A stretch of DNA of 32,000 bases from positions 2,100,001 to 2,132,000 of the forward strand of contig JALDRA010000001.1 in the NCBI GenBank assembly GCA_031316235.1, read 5' to 3'. Each line of letters begins with the position of its first letter. Within the stretch, counting starts at the first letter, position 1. The notes beneath the pieces are model-generated. The model made no database searches and was not told where the DNA came from. It saw only the letters and a list, made by a program, of their open reading frames with translations. This DNA is from Candidatus Scalindua sp. (GTDB lineage Bacteria; Planctomycetota; Brocadiia; Brocadiales; Scalinduaceae). Positions 6,306-31,153 of the stretch are shown here, piece after piece. Position numbers and translations under genes: made by a program.

Positions 6306-7226
6306 ATGAGAAACAAATGGATTATAAGAGGTCGTACAATCAGCGAAGATGATATCTCCATCATCAACAATCTGATAAAAGAGTATTTCCATAAAGGACG
6401 CAAACACATTTCCCGCCAACTAGCACACCATTGGAACTGGTATCAACCCAATGGACAAACAAAGGACATGGCCTGCCGGTACATACTCCTCTCTTTGGAA
6501 CAAGTAGGAGTAATAAAATTACCCCCTCGTCTTAATTCGGCTAATAATGAGAAGAGAAAGATTGAAAAGATAGAACTGGATAAAAAGCCACTCACCGGAA
6601 CAGTTACAAACCATCCCTCTTTGAAGTTAAAACATCTCATCTCCCCGGAAGAACATAAGCTCTGGAACAGAATAATCCACAGCTATCACTACCAGGGATA
6701 CCAGATAATAGTTGGTAAATATCTCAAGTACATAGCATACATTGATGACAGACCAGTGGCCCTTGTGGGTTGGGGATCAGCTGCATGGTCTTTAGAGGCA
6801 CGTGATACGTGGATTGGGTGGAGTAAAGAGATGAAGGATAGGAATCTTTGTGGGATAGTGAACAATATTCGGTTTTTGATTTTGCCATGGGTCAAGATTA
6901 AATACCTGGCAAGTAGAATTCTGGGGTTAAATATAAGGCGAATACAAGGTGATTGGAAAAAGAGATATGGACATTCTATTTATTTATTGGAAACATTTGT
7001 AGAACAAGACAAGTTTCATGGGACATGCTACAAAGCGGCAAACTGGACATACCTGGGTCAAACAAAAGGGAACGCTAAACGAGGAAATACCCATACATAC
7101 CACGGGAAGATAAAAAAGGTATTCGTATATCCTCTGTGTAATGATTTTCGGGACAAACTCACCCGCCAGGATGACTTTGTCGTCTGCCCGTACCGGTCCG
7201 GACGGGCGCTAGTGGAGAAGGGGTGA
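6306..7226 (+). CDS. DUF4338 domain protein (DruA-like family)
   Basis: ..HSYHYQGYQIIVGKYLKYIAY.., ALVGWGSAAWSLEARDTWIGW, NNIRFLILPW, YLLETFVEQDKFHGTCYKAANWTYLGQTKG. Start chosen at MRNKW (6306) rather than the ORF-track 6153. Confidence 0.75.
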   Translation: MRNKWIIRGRTISEDDISIINNLIKEYFHKGRKHISRQLAHHWNWYQPNGQTKDMACRYILLSLEQVGVIKLPPRLNSANNEKRKIEKIELDKKPLTGTVTNHPSLKLKHLISPEEHKLWNRIIHSYHYQGYQIIVGKYLKYIAYIDDRPVALVGWGSAAWSLEARDTWIGWSKEMKDRNLCGIVNNIRFLILPWVKIKYLASRILGLNIRRIQGDWKKRYGHSIYLLETFVEQDKFHGTCYKAANWTYLGQTKGNAKRGNTHTYHGKIKKVFVYPLCNDFRDKLTRQDDFVVCPYRSGRALVEKG

Positions 7227-7553
7227 TGGAAAAGGGAGAGAGCAGCATAAAGAAAAAAACAATATGCAAGGCTAATGCAGTCAAGGGGAGAATTGACCCC
7301 AAACTCACTATAATAATCATTACACACCAGATGTTTTCCAGCAGTTGTTAACAGTCCCTTCGCAGTTTACACTCAAGAATTTAATCAGAGCTCCTTGATG
7401 AAATAATTATGATGCAAATTGATATCTATTAGATGGATTGTAATATCAAGGTCGTGTGTTAGCTCTATAATCAGCTGCCGGGATATACCGAATGGCTAAT
7501 ATATTACGTTCTTTGTTTCTAGCATGTAGCCATGTATGGACTTGCCCCCTTTA
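7226..7553 (+). repeat. R1 3' segment (7226-7300) joined to R4 module (7300-7553), copy B
   Basis: 7300-7553 differs from 30900-31153 at only 2 positions by eye. It begins exactly at the DUF4338 stop codon. Confidence 0.85.
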
Positions 7554-7794: not shown

Positions 7795-8070
7795 TTAAGC
7801 AACTTCAAGCTTCAGGTGTTTACCTAATGCATTTGCAAATTTTTCAAGCGTTGACAGTTTTATATCTTCAGCATGATTTTCAATCCGGGAAATAGCAGAC
7901 TTTTTTGTGTGAAGCTTCTTAGCGAGTTCTTCCTGTGTTAAACCAGCTTCCTCACGGGCTGTTTTAAGCATTACACCAATTTTGAATTGTTCGTAACCGG
8001 ATTCAAAATTTTTTGCAAATTCAGGATCTCGTACCTTACGCTTTTTAATGTAATCTTGCAAATCGCTCAT
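7795..8070 (-). CDS. XRE-family HTH antitoxin
   Basis: ..[52 protein letters not shown]. 4-nt overlap with the upstream toxin gene. Confidence 0.85.
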
Positions 8071-8409
8071 TTTGTTTTTCTCCTTTTAAAATAATCACTT
8101 TTACGTTCCTCTGCTACCTTAATCGCACTTTTAGGAGTCTTTTGAGATTTTTTCTGGAATCCATAAGCCAAAACCACCAAAGTCGAACCATCATAGAAGC
8201 CAAGAAACCGAAATATATTTGATCCGAATATGATACGTACCTCCCAGATATCATCACTATTTTTCAATTTTTTGAAATAATGAGACGGAACTATGTCGAG
8301 TTCCTCTACTAAACTCAATACCCATGCAACTTTTTGAAGATAGCGTGTTAAGAAAATCCTTTACAGGGTTTTTCCCTGACGCTGTTTTGTAAAATATAAT
8401 TTCTCGCAC
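8067..8409 (-). pseudogene. Gp49-like (HigB/RelE-fold, phage-derived) toxin, disrupted by a frameshift in an A5/T5 run
   Basis: GTG at 8409 gives MREIIFYKTASGKNPVKDFLNTLSSK. After the T5 run at 8331-8335 the family sequence continues in another frame (..KVAWVLSLVEELDIVPSHYFKKL..IWEVRIIFGSNIFRFLGFY..VVLAYGFQKKSQKTP). Confidence 0.7.
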
Positions 8410-8414
8410 GCACA

Positions 8415-8440
8415 ATATGTTAACATACGTGTTAACATAT
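8415..8440. promoter_or_regulatory. Putative TA operator: two TGTTAACAT boxes 12 bp apart
   Basis: ATATGTTAACATACGTGTTAACATAT lies 6-31 nt upstream of the toxin GTG. Each box contains the palindrome GTTAAC. Confidence 0.45.
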
Positions 8441-8566
8441 TCAAGAGAGAAAGTTTGTGTTAGATTGAGGATAGTGATTGATAGTCTTAATTTTGTTCAT
8501 AAGAAGTGATAATACGAGAGATGATTCCTCACATAAAATAAGGATGACAAAATCCGAAAACATTTT

Positions 8567-8591
8567 AAATAAGTATGGTGTCCCCAGATTA
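8567..8591 (+). repeat. DR25 direct repeat, right copy (aaataagtatggtgtccccagatta)
   Basis: See 7703-7727. Confidence 0.8.
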
Positions 8592-8717
8592 ATGTAGAAG
8601 TTTCTCATGGGCCTTATCATGGGCCCCGTCATGGGCTTTCTCTAATTTTTTTAACGCAATATCTTTCCACTCATGAGCGCTTAGCAGTTTTAAGAGTTCC
8701 TTTTCATTCATACTCAT
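8589..8717 (-). pseudogene. N-terminal remnant of an AlbA_2/AAA-4-type regulator, running into a short tandem repeat
   Basis: MSMNEKELLKLLSAHEWKDI.. resembles the N-terminus of the 468-aa protein at 16730-18136 (MTEKELLIKLEEF..). The frame then reads through three tandem CATGGGCC units (8607-8637). Confidence 0.3.
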
Positions 8718-8736
8718 TGAACAACTTTTTCTTTAA

Positions 8737-8754
8737 CCACAGATGGACACTGAT
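8737..8754 (+). repeat. Inverted repeat, left arm, flanking the GxxExxY gene
   Basis: ccacagatggacactgat versus the reverse complement of 9199-9216 (ccacagatggacacagat): 17 of 18 match. Confidence 0.7.
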
Positions 8755-8826
8755 TCACACAGATAATATTTTTAATAATTCTGTTTTTCGATAATACAAA
8801 ATCCGTGTCTAACTGTGTCCTTTTCT

Positions 8827-9210
8827 TCATAAGATGATTCTCTCCCCTTCAAGTTTGGCATGTTTAAAGTTTAATACCAGCCCTACTCTCAACCCGATAA
8901 TCTTTAGATAATTGATGATTTGAGCTATTTCGTTATTGCCAATTTTCTCAATGACCTTGATATCAACAATAATTTTATCAAAAGCAATCAGATCGGAGAT
9001 ATATTCACCAACTTGTACAGATTTATAAATTACCGGTAACCGTACCTGTTGCTGAAACGGTATTTGTTTTATACCAAATTCAACAACAATTGCATTTTCA
9101 TAGGGTTTTTCAAGAAGACAATGACCAAGTGTGTTCAAAACTTCAAATGCACATCCAATAATCTGATGCGTTTCTTCCTTATACAAAAATCTGTGCTTAT
9201 CTGTGTCCAT
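8827..9210 (-). CDS. GxxExxY-family protein (PD-(D/E)XK-like superfamily)
   Basis: MDTDKHRFLYKEETHQIIGCAFEVLNTLGHCLLEKPYENAIVVEF..DLIAFDKIIVDIKV..QIINYLKIIGLRVGLVLNF. Start taken at the ATG at 9210; the ORF track extends to 9267. Confidence 0.75.
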   Translation of the reverse strand: MDTDKHRFLYKEETHQIIGCAFEVLNTLGHCLLEKPYENAIVVEFGIKQIPFQQQVRLPVIYKSVQVGEYISDLIAFDKIIVDIKVIEKIGNNEIAQIINYLKIIGLRVGLVLNFKHAKLEGERIIL

Positions 9211-9216
9211 CTGTGG
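9199..9216 (-). repeat. Inverted repeat, right arm, containing the GxxExxY start codon
   Basis: See 8737-8754. Confidence 0.7.
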
Positions 9217-9491
9217 TTCCTCACCCTGATCTAATATCCGCCAGTTCATACCACATATTTTTTCCAACCTCCAATTACTTTCATAAATTACGGGTTAAGG
9301 TCCTGAAAGCTTTGTGGTTTATCGCGGAGCAGATTTATAAGCCAGCTAATAGAAGAAGATTTGTCAGAAACAAACAGAAACACTATATAGAGAATTATAG
9401 GTATTATTGACGGTCATTATATTGTTCATACATCTGAAAAATTAAAAAACCGAAGGTTCTGAATTGAATTCAGGAGCTATTCAGCCAAATT

Positions 9492-9612
9492 AAAAGAATC
9501 TACGTGATGAAATCAAAATAGAAAAATTATAGTTTTAAATCTGTGGCTTTTTAAAACTAGTTTTACCCAGAAACATGTTTCTAAATCATTATGCGGGATT
9601 ATTTGTCAATAG
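9492..9612 (+). repeat. R2 repeat, copy 1 (~121 bp; contains the perfect 14-nt palindrome AGAAACATGTTTCT at 9569-9582)
   Basis: Near-identical to 11400-11520 except for a ~16-nt variable patch. Confidence 0.85.
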
Positions 9613-9638
9613 GTTAGGTTTAACCCCAGCATTCCTTT

Positions 9639-9941
9639 CTATATTGGTTCTTCTGATATCACATTTCGCTGGATCAGTATGGAATTAAACTGATCTCTGG
9701 TCATCGGGCAGTTAATCAGATCTGCCGCTTCCCTGTTGGTTTCCAATCGAAGCTGTTTACGCGTACACAAAAGAAGATCGCCTGCAATGTCTTTTGTCTT
9801 GCTTGAATGCGATATGTATGTATAAACCCCGGTTTCTCGACCTTCATATTCGTGATAGAAATAAATATGGTGACCGCTTGTTTCCTTTCTAAACCCCTTT
9901 TTAGGTAGGTTTTTTATGATGTCATTGCGTTTGACCTTCAT
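9639..9941 (-). CDS. HicA-like (YcfA-type) toxin with a C-terminal extension
   Basis: MKVKRNDIIKNLPKKGFRKETSGHHIYFYH...YISHSSKTKDIAGDLL..KQLRL resembles the HicA core. ATGA overlap with the upstream gene. Confidence 0.5.
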   Translation of the reverse strand: MKVKRNDIIKNLPKKGFRKETSGHHIYFYHEYEGRETGVYTYISHSSKTKDIAGDLLLCTRKQLRLETNREAADLINCPMTRDQFNSILIQRNVISEEPI

Positions 9942-10366
9942 TCATTGATCTTCTGAAAAAATTCCTCATAATACTGCTTCAGTCGTTGCGCATCACCAGT
10001 GACTTGCTCCCAATTCAGCTTTGTGTAATGTCTGTAAAAGTGGATTAATTGTTCACAAAAGGCCTTGATAGCGTTAATCCTGGTTTCTCCGGTAGTAAAA
10101 ATACCAAGATTTTCATTTTCGGCGAAAAAGAGGCTTTCTCCTTTTCGAACCTTAACAGAAACCGGTTTTAAAGAACGGATCACTACCATCGGCGAAGTAA
10201 ATCGCCAAAGTGGTGTATATGCAGCTGCGTGTTGCCGTACACTTTTATCAACATCTAATTCCCGGGCGGTCAGATCTCCTTCCAGAAATCTGGTATAACT
10301 TGAAGGAAAAGAGCTCTGTCGTTCTGCTTTTATTGCATAGCTTTCATCTAATTCAGTTTTTATCAT
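9938..10366 (-). CDS. HicB-like antitoxin-domain protein (no recognisable DNA-binding tail)
   Basis: ..VSVKVRKGESLFFAENENLGIFTTGETRINAIKAFCEQLIHFY resembles the HicB N-terminal fold signature. ATGA overlaps at both ends. Confidence 0.4.
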   Translation of the reverse strand: MIKTELDESYAIKAERQSSFPSSYTRFLEGDLTARELDVDKSVRQHAAAYTPLWRFTSPMVVIRSLKPVSVKVRKGESLFFAENENLGIFTTGETRINAIKAFCEQLIHFYRHYTKLNWEQVTGDAQRLKQYYEEFFQKINE

Positions 10367-11079
10367 ATAGTTTCGCCTTTTAGATATTGACGATACTCAT
10401 CAGTGATATAGTTCTCGAATAAGTTTCTGGCCTGATTATGTGCCTCATTTACTTTATCTCTTATGTTTGAAAATGTGAGTTCTTTAACATTTGCAAAATC
10501 AAAATCCAGTAGTATGGCCTCCTGCTGCTCATCCGAACGTGCTACAGATTCAATCTTCGTGGTGATGGTTCCGTTCGTAACTCTTGAAATAAACGTAAAG
10601 CTGAAATTCTCATATTTTTTCGATACTTCACCGGGTAAATTGAGGTCAAAATTAATAAACTGCTGAAGCGGGACTATGCTATCCTCACGTGTGAATGGAA
10701 TAGCGTTAATGTACCGCCATCCGAGGCGATTTACGAGTTTCAGCGTAAACGTTTCACCAAAAATCTTTGTGAGACGGATAAATTCTTTGATGAATGGTTT
10801 GTGACCTGAATATTCTTTTTCGTAATAGGAAAACCGGTTAATTGCCAGCATAATACCAGAATTTTGATCTTGATTCTCAAATCGATACGTAGGAAGTGCT
10901 CCGGCCAAAAGACCGTCCTTTTGCGGAACGAGAATATATGGATAATTATCCCTGATTTTGTCATAAAATTCATCTGTACGACATATTATGGACAATTCCT
11001 CTGGAAACCGGATCTCGCAAACCACCTCCACCAAGGGTGAATTGGGGTATACTTCTTTTATATCGTATTGTTTTGGCAT
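10363..11079 (-). CDS. TIGR04255-family uncharacterised protein
   Basis: N-terminus ..YPNSPLVEVVCEIRFPE.., then ..RLGWRYINAIPF.. and ..AILLDFDF.. as in TIGR04255 members. First gene of a three-gene translationally coupled set. Confidence 0.65.
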   Translation of the reverse strand: MPKQYDIKEVYPNSPLVEVVCEIRFPEELSIICRTDEFYDKIRDNYPYILVPQKDGLLAGALPTYRFENQDQNSGIMLAINRFSYYEKEYSGHKPFIKEFIRLTKIFGETFTLKLVNRLGWRYINAIPFTREDSIVPLQQFINFDLNLPGEVSKKYENFSFTFISRVTNGTITTKIESVARSDEQQEAILLDFDFANVKELTFSNIRDKVNEAHNQARNLFENYITDEYRQYLKGETI

Positions 11080-11120
11080 TTTTCCTCCTGAAAGAATTAC
11101 TGAATTGTATCAAATTTAGC

Positions 11121-11357
11121 CTAAAACCCCAATCCATTTTTCCTGGCCGGTACGTCGTCTATCAAGCGCTTTTCATCTGTTACAATAAAATGGAGAGCAG
11201 AAAGTGCATTGGCTAATCTCCAGAAAAGTGGATTGCGACCCACTGCTTCCTCAACCAAAAAGCGTTTCAGTGCTTCTCCGCGACCTGCTGCAAAGATAAT
11301 CATGCTCTGGTGAAGGTATCCCCGGACAAAAAGCGCCGAGGACTTAACTTGATTCAT
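11121..11357 (-). pseudogene. Probable C-terminal remnant of a DUF1156/COG1743-type (defence-associated methylase-like) protein
   Basis: ..LHQSMIIFAAGRGEALKRFLVEEAVGRNPLFWRLANALSALH..DEKRLIDDVPARKNGLGF* resembles from memory the tail of that family. Only 78 codons, and the ATG abuts repeat R3. Confidence 0.3.
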
Positions 11358-11363
11358 TTTTTT

Positions 11364-11400
11364 CCGGATTTTATCCTAAATCCATTATGAGATGAGTATA
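11364..11400 (+). repeat. R3 hairpin module (partial, degenerate stem)
   Basis: ccggattttatcctaaatccattatgagatgagtata. Confidence 0.65.
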
Positions 11401-11520
11401 AAAGAATCTACGTGATGAAATCAAAATAGAAAAATTATAGTTTTGAAAGTGGGGTTTTTTTTAACTAGTTTTACCCAGAAACATGTTTCTAAATCATTAT
11501 GCGGGATTATTTGTCAATAG
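11400..11520 (+). repeat. R2 repeat, copy 2 (palindrome AGAAACATGTTTCT at 11477-11490)
   Basis: See 9492-9612. Confidence 0.85.
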
Positions 11521-11720
11521 AATAGGTGACCAAAATATACCCCAATTATTTGCAATATCATTGTCGGGGGAGCTATCGGGAATAAGTTTCCCTGAGCTTG
11601 CAGAAAGATATAAAATAGCAACTTATAAGACGATAACATCAATGAAAGAAAATGGAGAGAGCAGCATAAAGAAAAAAACAATATGCAAGGCTAATGCAGT
11701 CAAGGGGAGATTTGATCCCA
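11521..11720 (+). repeat. R1 repeat, copy C (5'-truncated core, no tail)
   Basis: aataggtgaccaaaatat...cagtcaaggggagatttgatccca. Carries a 1-nt indel relative to copies A/D (aatgaaagaaaatg versus aaatgaaagaaaag). Confidence 0.85.
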
Positions 11721-11741
11721 ATTCCAATTCCTCTGTTTTAC

Positions 11742-12065
11742 TTAAATAATTCTTTCTCCTGTTTTTATTATCTCTCGAATATAAGGATTTGTTTCATCAA
11801 AATCTGTCTTCGCAAATGGATGAGGTTCTATGCGGAGATCAACAATTCTTCTTAGCTTCATTAATGTTGAATCTTCTTCAAAACCATCAAGATCATTCTT
11901 TTCCAGAAAAATAGCCAAATCTATATCGCTTTCACTATTGTAGGTGTTCTTTGCATAAGAACCGTAAAGATATAATCTCCATATCGGTATATGATTTTTT
12001 TTAATAATATCAATGTACTCGTTAATTTTTTTGTAGACTAATTTTTTATCTTTTCGATGAGCCAT
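11742..12065 (-). CDS. Minimal nucleotidyltransferase (MNT) partner of HEPN
   Basis: LYLYGSYAKNTYNSESDIDLAIF (GS..DxD NTase motif). Overlaps the HEPN gene by 28 nt. Confidence 0.85.
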   Translation of the reverse strand: MAHRKDKKLVYKKINEYIDIIKKNHIPIWRLYLYGSYAKNTYNSESDIDLAIFLEKNDLDGFEEDSTLMKLRRIVDLRIEPHPFAKTDFDETNPYIREIIKTGERII

Positions 12066-12430
12066 TTTCTGAAGTCCTTTATTCTGGTAATATAATTTTC
12101 TGTAAATTTTCCGGTTGCCTTTCTATAGAATCTATTTTTATAGTCAGGATATCTTGCTTTAATATTGAAAGTGGTGACATCATCAAGAAAGTCTTCCTGT
12201 TCTTCTGATAAGGTAAGACCTGCTTTTCTGGCTATACTTGACAAATCATGGGAATACGGGATGTCAGTATTTACATTTTTCATGTAATAAGCCTTCAAGA
12301 GTTTTTCAATAACAAGGTGACCAGCAAATAAAGCCCAGGCATAATGCTCGTTGTTAAAAAGACTTTCCATTGCCTGAAAATCATTATCTGAAGAACTAAG
12401 CCAGTATCTTATAATTTCATCTTTTATCAT
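12038..12430 (-). CDS. HEPN domain protein
   Basis: ..DNDFQAMESLFNNEHYAWALFAGHLVIEKLLKAYY..HDL.. About 130 aa, adjacent to MNT. Confidence 0.8.
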   Translation of the reverse strand: MIKDEIIRYWLSSSDNDFQAMESLFNNEHYAWALFAGHLVIEKLLKAYYMKNVNTDIPYSHDLSSIARKAGLTLSEEQEDFLDDVTTFNIKARYPDYKNRFYRKATGKFTENYITRIKDFRKWLIEKIKN

Positions 12431-12621
12431 ATTAATTACTAATTCTTATTGTTTTCGCTGTCTTCAATGTATTCTCTATTTTCCCGTTTATTTACTTATA
12501 GCTTCAGGTTCCATATTGTACTCTCTCACATCATGTATGCCAGTTTTTTTATTTCCGGTACTTTTAAATACAAATATCTTTCCTTATTCACTAATAAAGG
12601 TTTGATGCCCTAAGCTCACTC

Positions 12622-12692
12622 CACCTTAGATTCATGAGACATCTGACTCTTGACACCAATCTTAATATCTTAAAAGGCGACTCTTTGGATCA
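12622..12692 (+). repeat. R5 repeat, copy 1
   Basis: caccttagattcatgagacatctgactcttgacaccaatcttaat..ggcgactctttgg is about 75% identical by eye to 14585-14647. Confidence 0.55.
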
Positions 12693-12834
12693 AATTCCAA
12701 CAGCAATGGTCACACCATAGTGATCCTGTTTTGTATGTATTATGTAAAAGTTGTTAATTGAAAAATGAAGGTCTGGCCCTTTGAGTAAAACTAAAACAAT
12801 TGATTATTTGCCATTACACCTCACAGATTATATA

Positions 12835-13281
12835 TTACCAATTAACGATATCCTCATTATCGCCAGTGCCTCCATTAACTCCATCAGCACCATAGGACAC
12901 GATATCGTAATTTCCATGCTCGCCAGGATACGTATAAATGTATTCTCTACCCCAGGGATCTTTAGGTGTAACACTCTTTTTCAAATAAGGTCCACACCAA
13001 CTCGCTTCTATGTCTGGCTTTATTATTAAAGCGGTTAGTCCTGATTCTGAAGAGGGATATCTACCAGTATCCAGTTTGTACCTATCTAAAGCTGTGGAGA
13101 ACATCTCTATTTGTGCTTTTGAAGCGCTGCACTTATGTGATGTAAGGTAACATGTGCTTGTTAGATTTGGTGCAATTATTAGATAGAAATATCCGAGAAT
13201 ACCTATTACTATTAATGCAAAACAGTACTTTATTTTTCTTCGATTTTTTACCATACCAGAATTCCACTCATATTTTTTCAA
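12835..13281 (-). CDS. gspG: Type II secretion pseudopilin GspG-like protein with a non-canonical N-terminus
   Basis: T2SS-G domain: KAQIEMFSTALDRYKLDTGRYPSSESGLTALI..WCGPYLKK..KDPWGREYIYTYPGEHGNYDIVSYGADGVNGGTGDNEDIVNW. The N-terminus lacks the G/FTLIE prepilin motif. Confidence 0.75.
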   Translation of the reverse strand: MKKYEWNSGMVKNRRKIKYCFALIVIGILGYFYLIIAPNLTSTCYLTSHKCSASKAQIEMFSTALDRYKLDTGRYPSSESGLTALIIKPDIEASWCGPYLKKSVTPKDPWGREYIYTYPGEHGNYDIVSYGADGVNGGTGDNEDIVNW

Positions 13282-13343
13282 AATTTCAATATACCTTTGT
13301 TATTAAATTATCGACCTTTACGAAAGTTATTTAATGAGTTGAT

Positions 13344-13373
13344 TTAATGAGTTTCCGTACGGAAACTCATTAA
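13344..13373. promoter_or_regulatory. Perfect 30-nt palindrome TTAATGAGTTTCCGTACGGAAACTCATTAA
   Basis: 63-92 nt upstream of the gspG-like start. A partial extra half-site ttaatgagtt lies at 13331-13340. Confidence 0.4.
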
Positions 13374-13423
13374 ACTAAAACCGATTTGGTTTTCGGTATT
13401 ACCTGAAACCAGATCTTGGTGAA

Positions 13424-13902
13424 GGTATACTCGCTCAATTTGATCTCGGATTTTATCCGAAAACAATCATGAGATGAGTATATCATATGATAAATCGAGG
13501 AACAAACCCTGATAGAATCTTTTGCAAAGAGGAATGTTATTCTCAACAGAAGAATATGAGATATTTTTAATATCGGTGAAAGTGTATTGTGTCAAACCAG
13601 AATAGGTGACCAAAATATACCCCAATTATTTGCAATATCATTGTCGGGGGAGCTATCGGGATTAAGTTTCCCTGAGCTTGCAGAAAGATATAAAATAGCA
13701 ACTTATAAGACGATAACATCAAATGAAAGAAAAGGTAGGGAGTAGCATAAAGAAAAAAACAATATGCAAAGCTAATGCAGTCAAGGGGAAATTTGACCCC
13801 AAAACCTCACTTTGTACAATCTCCTTTTTATGGGAAATTATATAATGTGTATACGATGTTATGAAACACACAAGCTAATCACTAATCAAGGTTTGACCCC
13901 AA
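13424..13902 (+). repeat. Composite repeat copy D: R3 (13424-13482, stem-loop TCGGATTTTATCCGA 13446-13460), linker, R1 core (13540-13800), tail-A (13801-13902)
   Basis: The linker + core match 30583-30899. Tail-A matches 2850-2966 and 18646-18742. Confidence 0.85.
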
Positions 13903-13953
13903 TTGCTTTATAACTTGAATAATGAAGATGACCTTTGAAATTCAGGTGCTTAA

Positions 13954-14178
13954 TTATTTGGTAGGAATGCCTTGTATCTTTGAAGGACGGCAAACGTACA
14001 TATCAATTTTACGATTAGCTTCTTCATCAAAGAACTGTTCTTTGCAGGAATTGCATTCATCAAAAACAAGATTAGGAACTTTTACTTTGCCATACTTTGT
14101 ATCGAAAGAAAGAGTTCTTTTTACTCGCTTAATCTCGGAGCTATCACATATTGGACACGATTTCCATTTAGATTCCAT
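13954..14178 (-). CDS. YgiT/MqsA-type zinc-ribbon antitoxin (no HTH domain)
   Basis: CPICDSSE...(30 aa)...CNSCKEQFFDEEANRKI, located downstream of the MqsR-like gene. Confidence 0.6.
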   Translation of the reverse strand: MESKWKSCPICDSSEIKRVKRTLSFDTKYGKVKVPNLVFDECNSCKEQFFDEEANRKIDMYVCRPSKIQGIPTK

Positions 14179-18572: not shown

Positions 18573-18742
18573 AATCACTGATCAAGGTTTGACGTCATTT
18601 TTCGTGCAAGGCTAATGCAGTCAAGAGGAGATTTGATCCCAATACCTCACTTTGTACAATCTCCTTTTTATGGGAAATTATATAATGTGTATACGATGTT
18701 ATGGAACACACCAACTAATCACAAATCAAGGTTTGACCCCAA
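18573..18742 (+). repeat. R1 copy E (3' core fragment 18606-18645 + tail-A), bracketed by direct repeats aatcac..atcaaggtttgac (18573-18594 and 18716-18737)
   Basis: gcaaggctaatgcagtcaagaggagatttgatccc + ..cctcactttgtacaatctcctttttatgggaaattatataatgtgtatacgatgtt.. Confidence 0.8.
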
Positions 18743-30544: not shown

Positions 30545-31153
30545 CCGGATTTTATCCGAAAACAATCATGAGATGAGTATATCATGTGATGAATCGAGGA
30601 ACAAACCCTGATAGAATCTTTTGCAAAGAGGAAGGTTATTCTCAACAGAAGAATATGAGATATTTTTAATATCGGTGAAAGTGTATTGTGTCAAACCAAA
30701 AGAGGTAACCAAAATATACCCCAATTATTTGCAATATCATTGTCTGGGGAGCTATCGGGATTAAGTTTCCCTGGGCTTGCAGAAAGAAATAAAATAGCAA
30801 CTTATAAGACTGTAACATCAAATGAAAGAAAAGGTAGAGAGTAGCATAAAGAAAAAAACAATATGCAAGGCTTATGCAGTCAAGAGGAGGATTGACCCCA
30901 AACTCACTATAATAATCATTACACACCAGATGTTTTCCAGCAGTTGTTAACAGTCCCTTCGCAGTTTACACTCAAGAATTTAATCAGAGCTCCTTGATGA
31001 AATAATTATGATGCAAATTGATATCTATTAGATGGATTGTAATATCAAGGTCGTGTGTTAGCTCTATAATCAGCTGCCGGGATATACCGAATGGCTAATA
31101 TATTACGTTCTTTGTTTTTAGCATGTAGCCATGTATGGACTTGACCCCTTTAC
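30545..31153 (+). repeat. Composite repeat copy F: R3 (30545-30582), linker, R1 core (30639-30899), R4 (30900-31153); bracketed by the 16-bp direct repeat gacttgacccctttac (30517-30532 and 31138-31153)
   Basis: Matches copy D (R3-linker-core) and copy B (core 3' end + R4). Confidence 0.85.

Follow-up and report, generated by a model that had tools for sequence, protein, structure and literature searches.

Many, but not all, HicB proteins carry a C-terminal ribbon-helix-helix (RHH) or helix-turn-helix (HTH) domain, and in the omega-epsilon-zeta system a third component is followed by an antitoxin without a DNA-binding domain and then by the toxin. The paaR2-paaA2-parE2 operon has the order regulator, antitoxin, toxin (PMC8630535). 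HicA and HicB were described by Makarova et al. (2009) as strictly two-gene pairs in which HicB itself is probably not DNA-binding (PMC2701414), and an antitoxin-first gene order is known from the HicBA system of S. pneumoniae (PMC6159526). In toxin-antitoxin-chaperone (TAC) systems (HigBA-SecB(TA)/HigBAC), a SecB-like chaperone holds the antitoxin ChAD, senses phage and is displaced by a phage protein, and the warheads are modular (bioRxiv 10.1101/2024.02.24.581848). Here we describe a three-gene module at positions 9639–11079 of a 32,000-nucleotide (nt) stretch of Candidatus Scalindua sp. (NCBI GenBank assembly GCA_031316235.1, contig JALDRA010000001.1, positions 2,100,001–2,132,000 of the forward strand), hereafter called the window. 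The genes, labeled A, B and C, encode a TIGR04255-family protein, an antitoxin-like protein and a putative divergent relative of HicA.

The original prediction, made from the sequence of the window, had described three minus-strand genes joined by two ATGA start/stop overlaps, and the coordinates of the open reading frames (ORFs) match this description exactly:

10363–11079, minus strand: gene A, ORF of 238 amino acids (aa), TIGR04255 family, first in the module
9938–10366, minus strand: gene B, ORF of 142 aa, antitoxin-like, weakly similar to HicB and PHD_like
9639–9941, minus strand: gene C, ORF of 100 aa, divergent HicA-like, putative RNase toxin
10363–10366, minus strand: ATGA overlap of the A stop and B start codons, read from the sequence, translational coupling
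9938–9941, minus strand: ATGA overlap of the B stop and C start codons, read from the sequence
11084–11089, minus strand: Shine-Dalgarno sequence AGGAGG, read from the sequence, 4 nt 5′ of the A ATG

The module resembles HicAB in several respects. C is small, basic and related to HicA_toxin at the family level, with L-x-K-K-G-F, G-H-H, S-H and K-Q-L-R-L in the HicA order; B is predicted to have a beta-rich core that leads into a G-E-[ST]-x-x-E-A helix, like the N-domains of HicB proteins, and belongs to an acidic family; and the two genes are adjacent and overlapping. It differs from HicAB in its obligatory upstream third gene of the TIGR04255 family, in a B protein that lacks an RHH or HTH domain and starts with a tail of 46 aa predicted to be disordered, and in a C protein with a C-terminal extension of ~35 aa containing an invariant Cys; the window copies of B and C also lie below the Pfam cut-offs. 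The order B-C is the reverse of E. coli hicA-hicB, as had been pointed out in the original prediction. As in TAC systems, the arrangement is tripartite, the antitoxin-like protein bears an extension, predicted to be disordered, to which a third protein could attach, and the A-linked warhead varies too (HicA-like or PIN); the tail of B is N-terminal, however, whereas the ChAD of TAC systems is C-terminal. With paaR2-paaA2-parE2 and omega-epsilon-zeta the module shares the order third component, antitoxin without a DNA-binding domain, toxin, but the third components of those systems are HTH or RHH repressors, whereas A is acidic and has no such domain, and the other operons of the A family already encode an HTH protein. 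On the basis of these comparisons and the data below, we tentatively read A-B-C as an autonomous, mobile, tripartite toxin-antitoxin (TA)-like module in which A would act on B as a stabilizer or sensor, a reading that we hold to be nearly as probable as its negation.

The three genes are inherited as one unit

With an alignment restricted to A as the query, 185,579 species genomes yielded 55 loci with 33–95% identity, most of them contigs of metagenome-assembled genomes (MAGs); individual loci are designated by L-numbers (e.g., L010). According to the record titles, they represent at least 12 phylum-level lineages, and include Planctomycetota, Desulfobacterota, Nitrospirota, Elusimicrobiota, Gammaproteobacteria, Ignavibacteria, Thermoleophilia, Calditrichota, Spirochaetota, Omnitrophota, Deferribacteres, Aerophobetes, Bacteroidota and Clostridia. 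For B and C, 30 and 78 homologues, respectively, came from shared contigs; the closest were those of Candidatus Scalindua (91–93% identity), which marks the window as DNA of an anammox planctomycete relative. According to hidden Markov models of B and C, 49 of the 55 loci carry the two genes immediately downstream of A. The six exceptions consisted of four contig ends, one locus with a PIN gene in place of C and one deletion; when the truncated contigs are set aside, synteny was thus observed in 49 of 51 loci. The 4-nt overlap between A and B was present in 42 of the 49 loci, and the spacing between B and C ranged from −14 to +27 nt, with a 4-nt overlap in 12. The pairwise distances of A, B and C were correlated (Pearson 0.88, 0.78 and 0.81), B being the fastest-evolving of the three genes. 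Representatives matching the A profile at E ~1e-26 to 1e-30 retained the overlapping architecture of A (240 aa), a second protein of ~130 aa and a third of ~95–100 aa, in which B and C were only weakly recognizable. The synteny, the overlaps and the correlated divergence indicate that the three genes are inherited together as an obligate unit, in agreement with the single module originally proposed.

The genes flanking the module differed between loci and included alaS, recA, isocitrate dehydrogenase, integrases, two-component systems and others. These unrelated flanks suggest that the module is autonomous and mobile, as mobile TA and defense cassettes behave. The genomic features of type II TA systems were also observed, namely small adjacent genes, a patchy mobile distribution, a basic C (median isoelectric point (pI) of the family, 9.4) and an acidic, fast-evolving B (family median, 5.4). 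The combination of a basic C with an acidic, fastest-evolving B is the classic toxin/antitoxin pattern.

Gene A: a TIGR04255 protein with a predicted TBP-like fold

The product of A matched the NCBIfam model TIGR04255 with 110.1 bits (E 1.5e-31; cut-off, 30), residues 11–231 aligning to profile positions 2–249 of 252, which establishes the family membership given in the original prediction. Searches of A against Pfam, PADLOC and PDB sequences returned no match, TIGR04255 itself has no Pfam model and no solved structure, and no mention of it was found in the ~8.3 million full-text papers searched. The AlphaFold2 (AF2) model of A (pLDDT 86.5, pTM 0.84) consists of two beta-alpha-beta4-alpha repeats. 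Foldseek aligned this model to TBP and AdoMetDC at probability 1.0, with TM-scores of only ~0.3, and Bet v 1/START and CYTH folds came after these; in the BFVD viral library, TBP-like proteins were retrieved (best TM-score, 0.53/0.61). A is thus predicted from its model to adopt a TBP-like fold composed of two repeats. Residues P15, Y90, F96, R118, G120, R122, Y123, D192, D194 and F221 were invariant across the wider TIGR04255 family. The pI was 5.2 for A of the window and 4.8–6.7 for other TIGR04255 proteins, i.e., acidic to neutral. Comparison by sequence did not detect similarity of A to SecB, the type of third component found in TAC systems.

The antitoxin-like protein B and the HicA-like protein C

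B of the window matched only the Pfam family PF12910 PHD_like (16.5 bits, E 0.009; cut-off, 27), and this family was also weakly matched by 15 of 27 B relatives, all below threshold (best E 0.004). No match was found to the HicB Pfam families, nor in PHROGs when the B family was used as the query. No HTH or RHH domain was detected by profiles in B or its relatives, or in the AF2 model, and the C-terminal DNA-binding domain of many HicB proteins is therefore missing. In the AF2 model (pLDDT 71.5 overall), residues 1–46 have a pLDDT below 50 and are predicted to be disordered; within this tail, E8, Y10, E15, P21, F24 and T33 are conserved in the close clade. The remainder is a core modeled with confidence, made up of four strands and two helices, and at the end of the model two helices lie against the sheet. 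Foldseek found no significant match to the model of B. The best geometric match was 3k6q_B (probability 0.72, root mean square deviation 3.1 Å over 65 columns, E 1.0), a PHD_like structure that is the antitoxin of a putative TA pair. In an hhalign comparison of the B profile with the single E. coli HicB sequence, only the G-E-T-x-x-E-A helix was aligned (E 0.04, not significant). The original prediction had assigned to B a HicB-like fold without a DNA-binding tail; the absence of the tail was borne out, while for the fold the searches provided sub-threshold PHD_like matches and the non-significant match to 3k6q, and hence no firm HicB assignment.

C of the window aligned to Pfam PF07927 (HicA_toxin) over residues 6–56 with 17.6 bits (E 0.004). 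The same family was matched at E < 0.1 by 26 of 33 C relatives (best E 1.8e-6), and a precomputed PF07927 match was present in three C relatives. The HicA-likeness ascribed to C therefore holds at the family level, but the window copy lies below the Pfam cut-off, and C, as judged from its sequence, is a divergent HicA relative rather than a recognized family member. Because C does not reach this cut-off and the HicB evidence for B is weak, the terms HicA-like and HicB-like are names here and not statements of family membership. Residues L12, K15, G16, F17, S44 and C78 of C were invariant, and H25 was conserved in at least 90% of the homologues. By eye, the motifs LPKKGF, GHH, ISHS and RKQLRL of C follow the same order as LESQGV, GSNH, PRHP and LKQLGL of E. 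coli HicA, and H25 falls without gaps opposite the His of “GSNH” in a pairwise alignment that is not significant. An hhalign comparison of the C profile with the single E. coli HicA sequence was not significant either. The C-terminal extension of ~35 aa noticed in the original prediction proved to be conserved (xEAVDLIxCPMDxxxFNxIL, with the invariant Cys78) and has no HicA counterpart. Sequence and profile searches of PDB chains with A, B and C gave nothing significant, even with 48-sequence profiles. A winged-helix fold for C, to which weak MecI and eS10 matches had pointed, was rejected because the ~11 residues preceding L-x-K-K-G-F are too few for three helices.

Location of the module in Hma defense loci and decay of Hma in the window

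A DUF1156 gene upstream of the module and a DUF499 gene downstream form the only recurrent neighborhood, and PADLOC identified their products as HmaB (E 2e-95) and HmaC (E 4.5e-123), respectively. The Hma system consists of HmaA (helicase-nuclease), HmaB (DUF1156 methylase) and HmaC (DUF499 ATPase), and the closest relatives of the module sit between hmaB and hmaC. The original prediction had missed this context, of which the window keeps a decayed form. The arrangement hmaB-A-B-C-hmaC was found in five distinct Hma loci (L004, L007/L032, L010, L011 and L017). In the Hma loci, hmaC starts 1–3 nt past the C stop codon or overlaps it, indicating that hmaB, the module and hmaC belong to one operon. 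The module proteins have no homology to the Hma proteins, however, and the module mostly occurs without Hma, since ~45 of the 55 loci had no hmaB or hmaC in their flanks (up to 6 kb per side). Inserted genes, including Septu, PARIS and Ppl, have been reported in 66.5% of hma loci, and the same study describes the region as a hotspot for the insertion of defense genes (PMC11232893).

The window contains neither hmaC nor an intact hmaB, whereas the sister Scalindua locus L010 has both. Two features next to the module bear on this difference:

11124–11315, minus strand: hmaB remnant (DUF1156 methylase), last 64 codons, ending ~40 nt upstream of A, detected by tblastn
11508–11721, no strand assigned: dispersed repeat (~365 bp), one copy, ~190 nt past the point where hmaB is truncated, detected by self-BLAST

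The remnant was 83% identical to the C-terminus of HmaB of L010 (tblastn). The window matched L010 at 94.6% from position 11315 down to exactly the C stop codon at 9639, and the next match, at 9588–9633 of the window, falls 3.8 kb further along L010; this jump indicates that hmaC is cleanly missing from the window. A 3′ scar of hmaB upstream of A was also found in L001/L016, L024, L054, L013 and L014. The ratios of nonsynonymous to synonymous substitution rates (dN/dS) between the window and L010 were 0.19 for A, 0.46 for B and 0.30 for C, and although Hma has been lost, all three genes remain intact and are subject to purifying selection. This persistence after the decay of Hma, seen in the window and at the other scarred loci, looks like addiction.

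A shorter fragment of the repeat (36 nt, 11365–11400) lies closer to the truncated end of hmaB. At least six copies were present in the window (13436–13803, 30546–30908, 2589–2889, 11508–11721 together with 11365–11400, 18605–18690 and 7229–7309), with 90–96% identity and some of them truncated, and a copy was also found in the L010 contig at 6881–7248. Copies adjoin points at which synteny with L010 is broken. The repeat resembles a miniature inverted-repeat transposable element (MITE) or a similar mobile element, and its presence is probably connected with the loss of the remaining part of hmaB.

A separate observation concerns L002 (JGI 3300036222 Ga0402058_010), in which a protein of 1,017 aa that contains SACS and NOV_C domains is encoded at 1–1809, upstream of an A-B-C module with the hmaB scar. 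NOV_C is the nuclease domain that defines HmaA, and this protein may likewise be left over from an Hma locus.

Variant and decayed modules

In L057 (6001–7792; groundwater Deltaproteobacteria MAG, JACPIY010000004.1), A is followed by a gene for a 222-aa B-like protein (hhalign E 1e-3) and then by a gene for a PIN protein (PF01850, E 3e-7), without C. The presence of PIN in place of C suggests that the toxin, or warhead, is exchangeable. Conversely, the plasmid pGM3709_06 of Geminocystis sp. NIES-3709 (NZ_AP014827.1, 10.4 kb) carries a B-core protein and C but no TIGR04255 gene. The last 64 residues of a 356-aa ORF of this plasmid match the B core (E 3e-9), and the C homologue (E 5e-28) comes next, joined to it by a start/stop overlap (L078:275–562 and L079:1–796). 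The ORF is unannotated and spans the record origin; its absence from the PLSDB gene table is explained by its crossing of the record start. The N-terminal ~270 aa were considered as a fused TIGR04255 domain but were not A-like when tested. The occurrence of this pair without A suggests that the B core and C are the basic pair and that A correlates with the short disordered tail. Where A is absent, the tail of B is replaced by the ~270-aa domain, which fits A working via the N-terminus of B.

Decay was seen at two further loci. In L017, the space between hmaB and hmaC holds only a fragment of the B core (2425–2703, equivalent to residues 58–126), while a second A gene is located downstream of hmaC. 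In L064 (5989–6529), a deletion has fused residues 1–51 of A to a short tail and removed most of A and B, leaving C intact.

The wider TIGR04255 family

At 50%-identity clustering, the A profile matched 4,597 clusters at E ≤ 1e-3, 892 at E ≤ 1e-10 and 120 at E ≤ 1e-30. The wider family was surveyed in 14 plasmid records and two metagenome contigs. The plasmid TIGR04255 genes, with 22–30% identity to A, came from Proteobacteria and Cyanobacteria (Acinetobacter, Klebsiella, Vibrio, Pseudomonas, Robbsia, Rhizobium, Chroococcidiopsis and Gloeocapsa) and head co-directional three-gene operons in which gene 1 overlaps or abuts gene 2. Gene 2 encodes an Xre/CI-type HTH protein of 190–290 aa with a variable N-terminal tail of ~75–100 aa. 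Gene 3 encodes an unannotated protein of ~280 aa (220–305), for which no Pfam, NCBIfam or PADLOC match was found; its invariant W, Q-G, C-D and R residues lie in the motifs W-x-Q-G (“WRQG”), [ST]-Q-D-C-D (“SQDCDI”) and W-L-A-x-R-Y (“WLAxRYxRxAFPD”). The operons with the HTH and ~280-aa proteins are as follows:

L065–L069 and L071–L074: NZ_CP043459.1, NZ_CP104160.1, NC_019699.1, NC_021909.1, NZ_CP093490.1, NZ_CP044084.1, NZ_CP139168.1, NC_020051.1 and NZ_CP115190.1

The invariant motifs R-x-G-[LW]-R-Y and D-x-D are common to A and gene 1 of these operons, and the operons, like the module, are found on mobile DNA, but genes 2 and 3 are unlike B and C. When the HTH and ~280-aa proteins were tested as remote homologues of B and C, no similarity was found. 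The plasmid operon looks like an uncharacterized system of its own.

The association of TIGR04255 with HicAB-like partners, which the original prediction had proposed to check in gene neighborhoods, was thus found in 49 of the 55 close loci but in none of the distant plasmid operons; a general role of TIGR04255 as a partner of HicAB did not survive this comparison. The distant operons suggest instead that A is the constant first gene of variable pairs of a regulator-like and an effector-like gene. It is conceivable, though we consider it rather unlikely, that TIGR04255 proteins are the shared sensor or stabilizer in modular three-gene systems of immunity or addiction that together make up a large, undescribed class. 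In such a class, a TBP-like two-repeat protein would control a tail-bearing neutralizer or regulator (HicB-like or Xre-HTH), which would hold an exchangeable effector (the HicA-like RNase, the PIN nuclease or the ~280-aa “QDCD” protein). The class would be analogous to TAC systems, but with a different fold.

Proposed mechanism and alternative explanations

From the properties of the module we infer the toxicity of C, its neutralization by B, a contact between A and B, and a trigger. C would be a HicA-type, ribosome-independent RNase warhead, and the HicB-like core of B would bind and block it, B itself being unable to bind DNA. A, whose synthesis would be coupled to that of B by the 4-nt overlap, would act on B as a stabilizer or sensor, most likely on the 46-residue disordered N-terminal tail, in a role resembling that of the TAC SecB-like chaperone that holds the antitoxin ChAD tail; tail recognition and phage sensing in TAC systems are a precedent for such an action. 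If A were titrated away or triggered, e.g., by a phage product, B would be lost and C would cleave RNA. The module would then probably be an abortive-infection or addiction switch, and its location between hmaB and hmaC in five Hma loci is counted in favor of a role in defense.

Several results weigh against this proposal. The window copy of C does not reach the gathering cut-off of PF07927 (27 bits), its Smith-Waterman alignment with E. coli HicA was no better than with shuffled sequences (z ~0), and profile searches of PDB chains with C did not reach any HicA. The HicB-likeness of B was below threshold in every search, and B of the window, with a pI of 7.8, is not acidic. PADLOC recognized none of A, B and C, and searches of IMG/VR and of GenBank phages yielded no relative of A. 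With respect to TAC systems, A is not SecB-like but has a predicted TBP-like two-repeat fold, and it is encoded first, whereas the TAC chaperone is encoded last. Finally, the intact C of L064, without A and B, is unexpected for an active toxin and calls for caution about constitutive toxicity, unless it is explained by a second B in the genome or by misassembly of the MAG.

The main rival explanation regards A as a DNA-binding autoregulator that replaces the DNA-binding domain absent from B, with the TBP-like saddle binding the operator. The lack of an HTH or RHH domain in B, the gene order, which is that of paaR2-paaA2-parE2 (PMC8630535), and the Foldseek probability of 1.0 for the match of the A model to TBP are in its favor. 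However, A and its relatives are acidic to neutral (5.2; others, 4.8–6.7), unlike basic DNA binders, the TM-scores to TBP are only ~0.3, and inspection, the only means used, revealed no conserved operator or inverted repeat upstream. Moreover, gene 2 already encodes an HTH protein in most other TIGR04255 operons, so that DNA binding is not the function missing there, and we consider autoregulation by A improbable. A similarly small probability is given to a function unrelated to TA, in which C would be a non-toxic RNA binder akin to a dsRBD (a domain that binds double-stranded RNA) and A-B-C would form an RNA- or nucleotide-handling complex with A as its ligand-binding or enzymatic subunit. 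C is only distantly HicA-like and occurs intact as an orphan in L064, the family-wide invariant residues R118, R122, D192, D194 and Y123 of A suggest a ligand or active site, and the structural neighbors of A include the ligand-binding folds AdoMetDC, Bet v 1/START and CYTH. Such a complex would not be expected from the His that at least 90% of the C homologues retain at the position of the HicA G-S-H motif, the substitution of C by a PIN nuclease in L057, the basic and acidic charge pattern of C and B, and the mobile, patchy distribution in TA and defense islands.

The module might also be an accessory regulatory or sensing unit of Hma, of which the window copy would be a leftover, as the one-operon arrangement between hmaB and hmaC in L004, L007, L010, L011 and L017 and the hmaB 3′ scars in the closest clade would suggest. 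This is highly doubtful, because ~45 of the 55 loci have no hmaB or hmaC in their flanks (up to 6 kb), the module has remained intact and under purifying selection after the loss of hmaB and hmaC, and the gap between hmaB and hmaC has been reported as an insertion hotspot for unrelated defense systems (PMC11232893). A fortuitous adjacency of a HicBA-like pair to an unrelated TIGR04255 gene has next to no probability: that TA genes cluster in islands is all that speaks for it, and chance is excluded by the synteny in 49 of 51 loci, the distribution over at least 12 phylum-level lineages, the 4-nt A/B overlap and the correlated divergence.

Neighboring genes in the window

Several pairs and genes of TA or defense type were found near the module: a Gp49/HigB-like and Xre-HTH pair within 7795–9267, a GxxExxY gene (TIGR04256/PDDEXK_3) at 8827–9267, and a pair of HEPN (12038–12430) and nucleotidyltransferase (11742–12065) genes. 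These neighbors indicate that the module lies in a dense TA/defense island. The Gp49/HigB-like toxin gene (8067–8415, minus strand), which lies upstream of the HTH antitoxin gene (7795–8070), appears to be split into the overlapping ORFs 8257–8415 and 8067–8318. The Pfam match of ORF 8067–8318 spans positions 28–89 of the 90 of the profile, and the absent N-terminus, IIFYKTASGKNPVKDFLNTL, is encoded in the other frame; the gene is probably a frameshifted toxin pseudogene. A 74-aa ORF at 13954–14178 (minus strand) contains two CxxC pairs (“CPICDS...CNSCKE”) and resembles the zinc-ribbon N-terminus of MqsA/YgiT-type antitoxins, for which it is a candidate.

Upstream of A, a weak −35/−10 match was present at 11165–11136, within the hmaB remnant, which may carry the promoter of the module. 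In promoter and terminator scans around the module, matches were no commoner than in shuffled sequence. An Rfam scan of positions 9000–14000 found no RNA family.

Implications for the TIGR04255 family

The sampled members of TIGR04255 nearly always head a three-gene operon, and a role that can be put to the test is thereby proposed for the family, that of third component alongside a TA-like pair whose nuclease warheads are exchangeable and which recurs inside a known phage-defense locus. As a variant of the known tripartite systems, the new element would be a tripartite TA system that combines a HicAB-like warhead with a third component of TBP-like fold. If the proposed reading is true, the module would represent a new tripartite TA/defense architecture with a novel sensor fold, would supply a new signature for defense-system annotation tools, and would offer a modular scaffold for the engineering of hybrid systems, as has been done for TAC.

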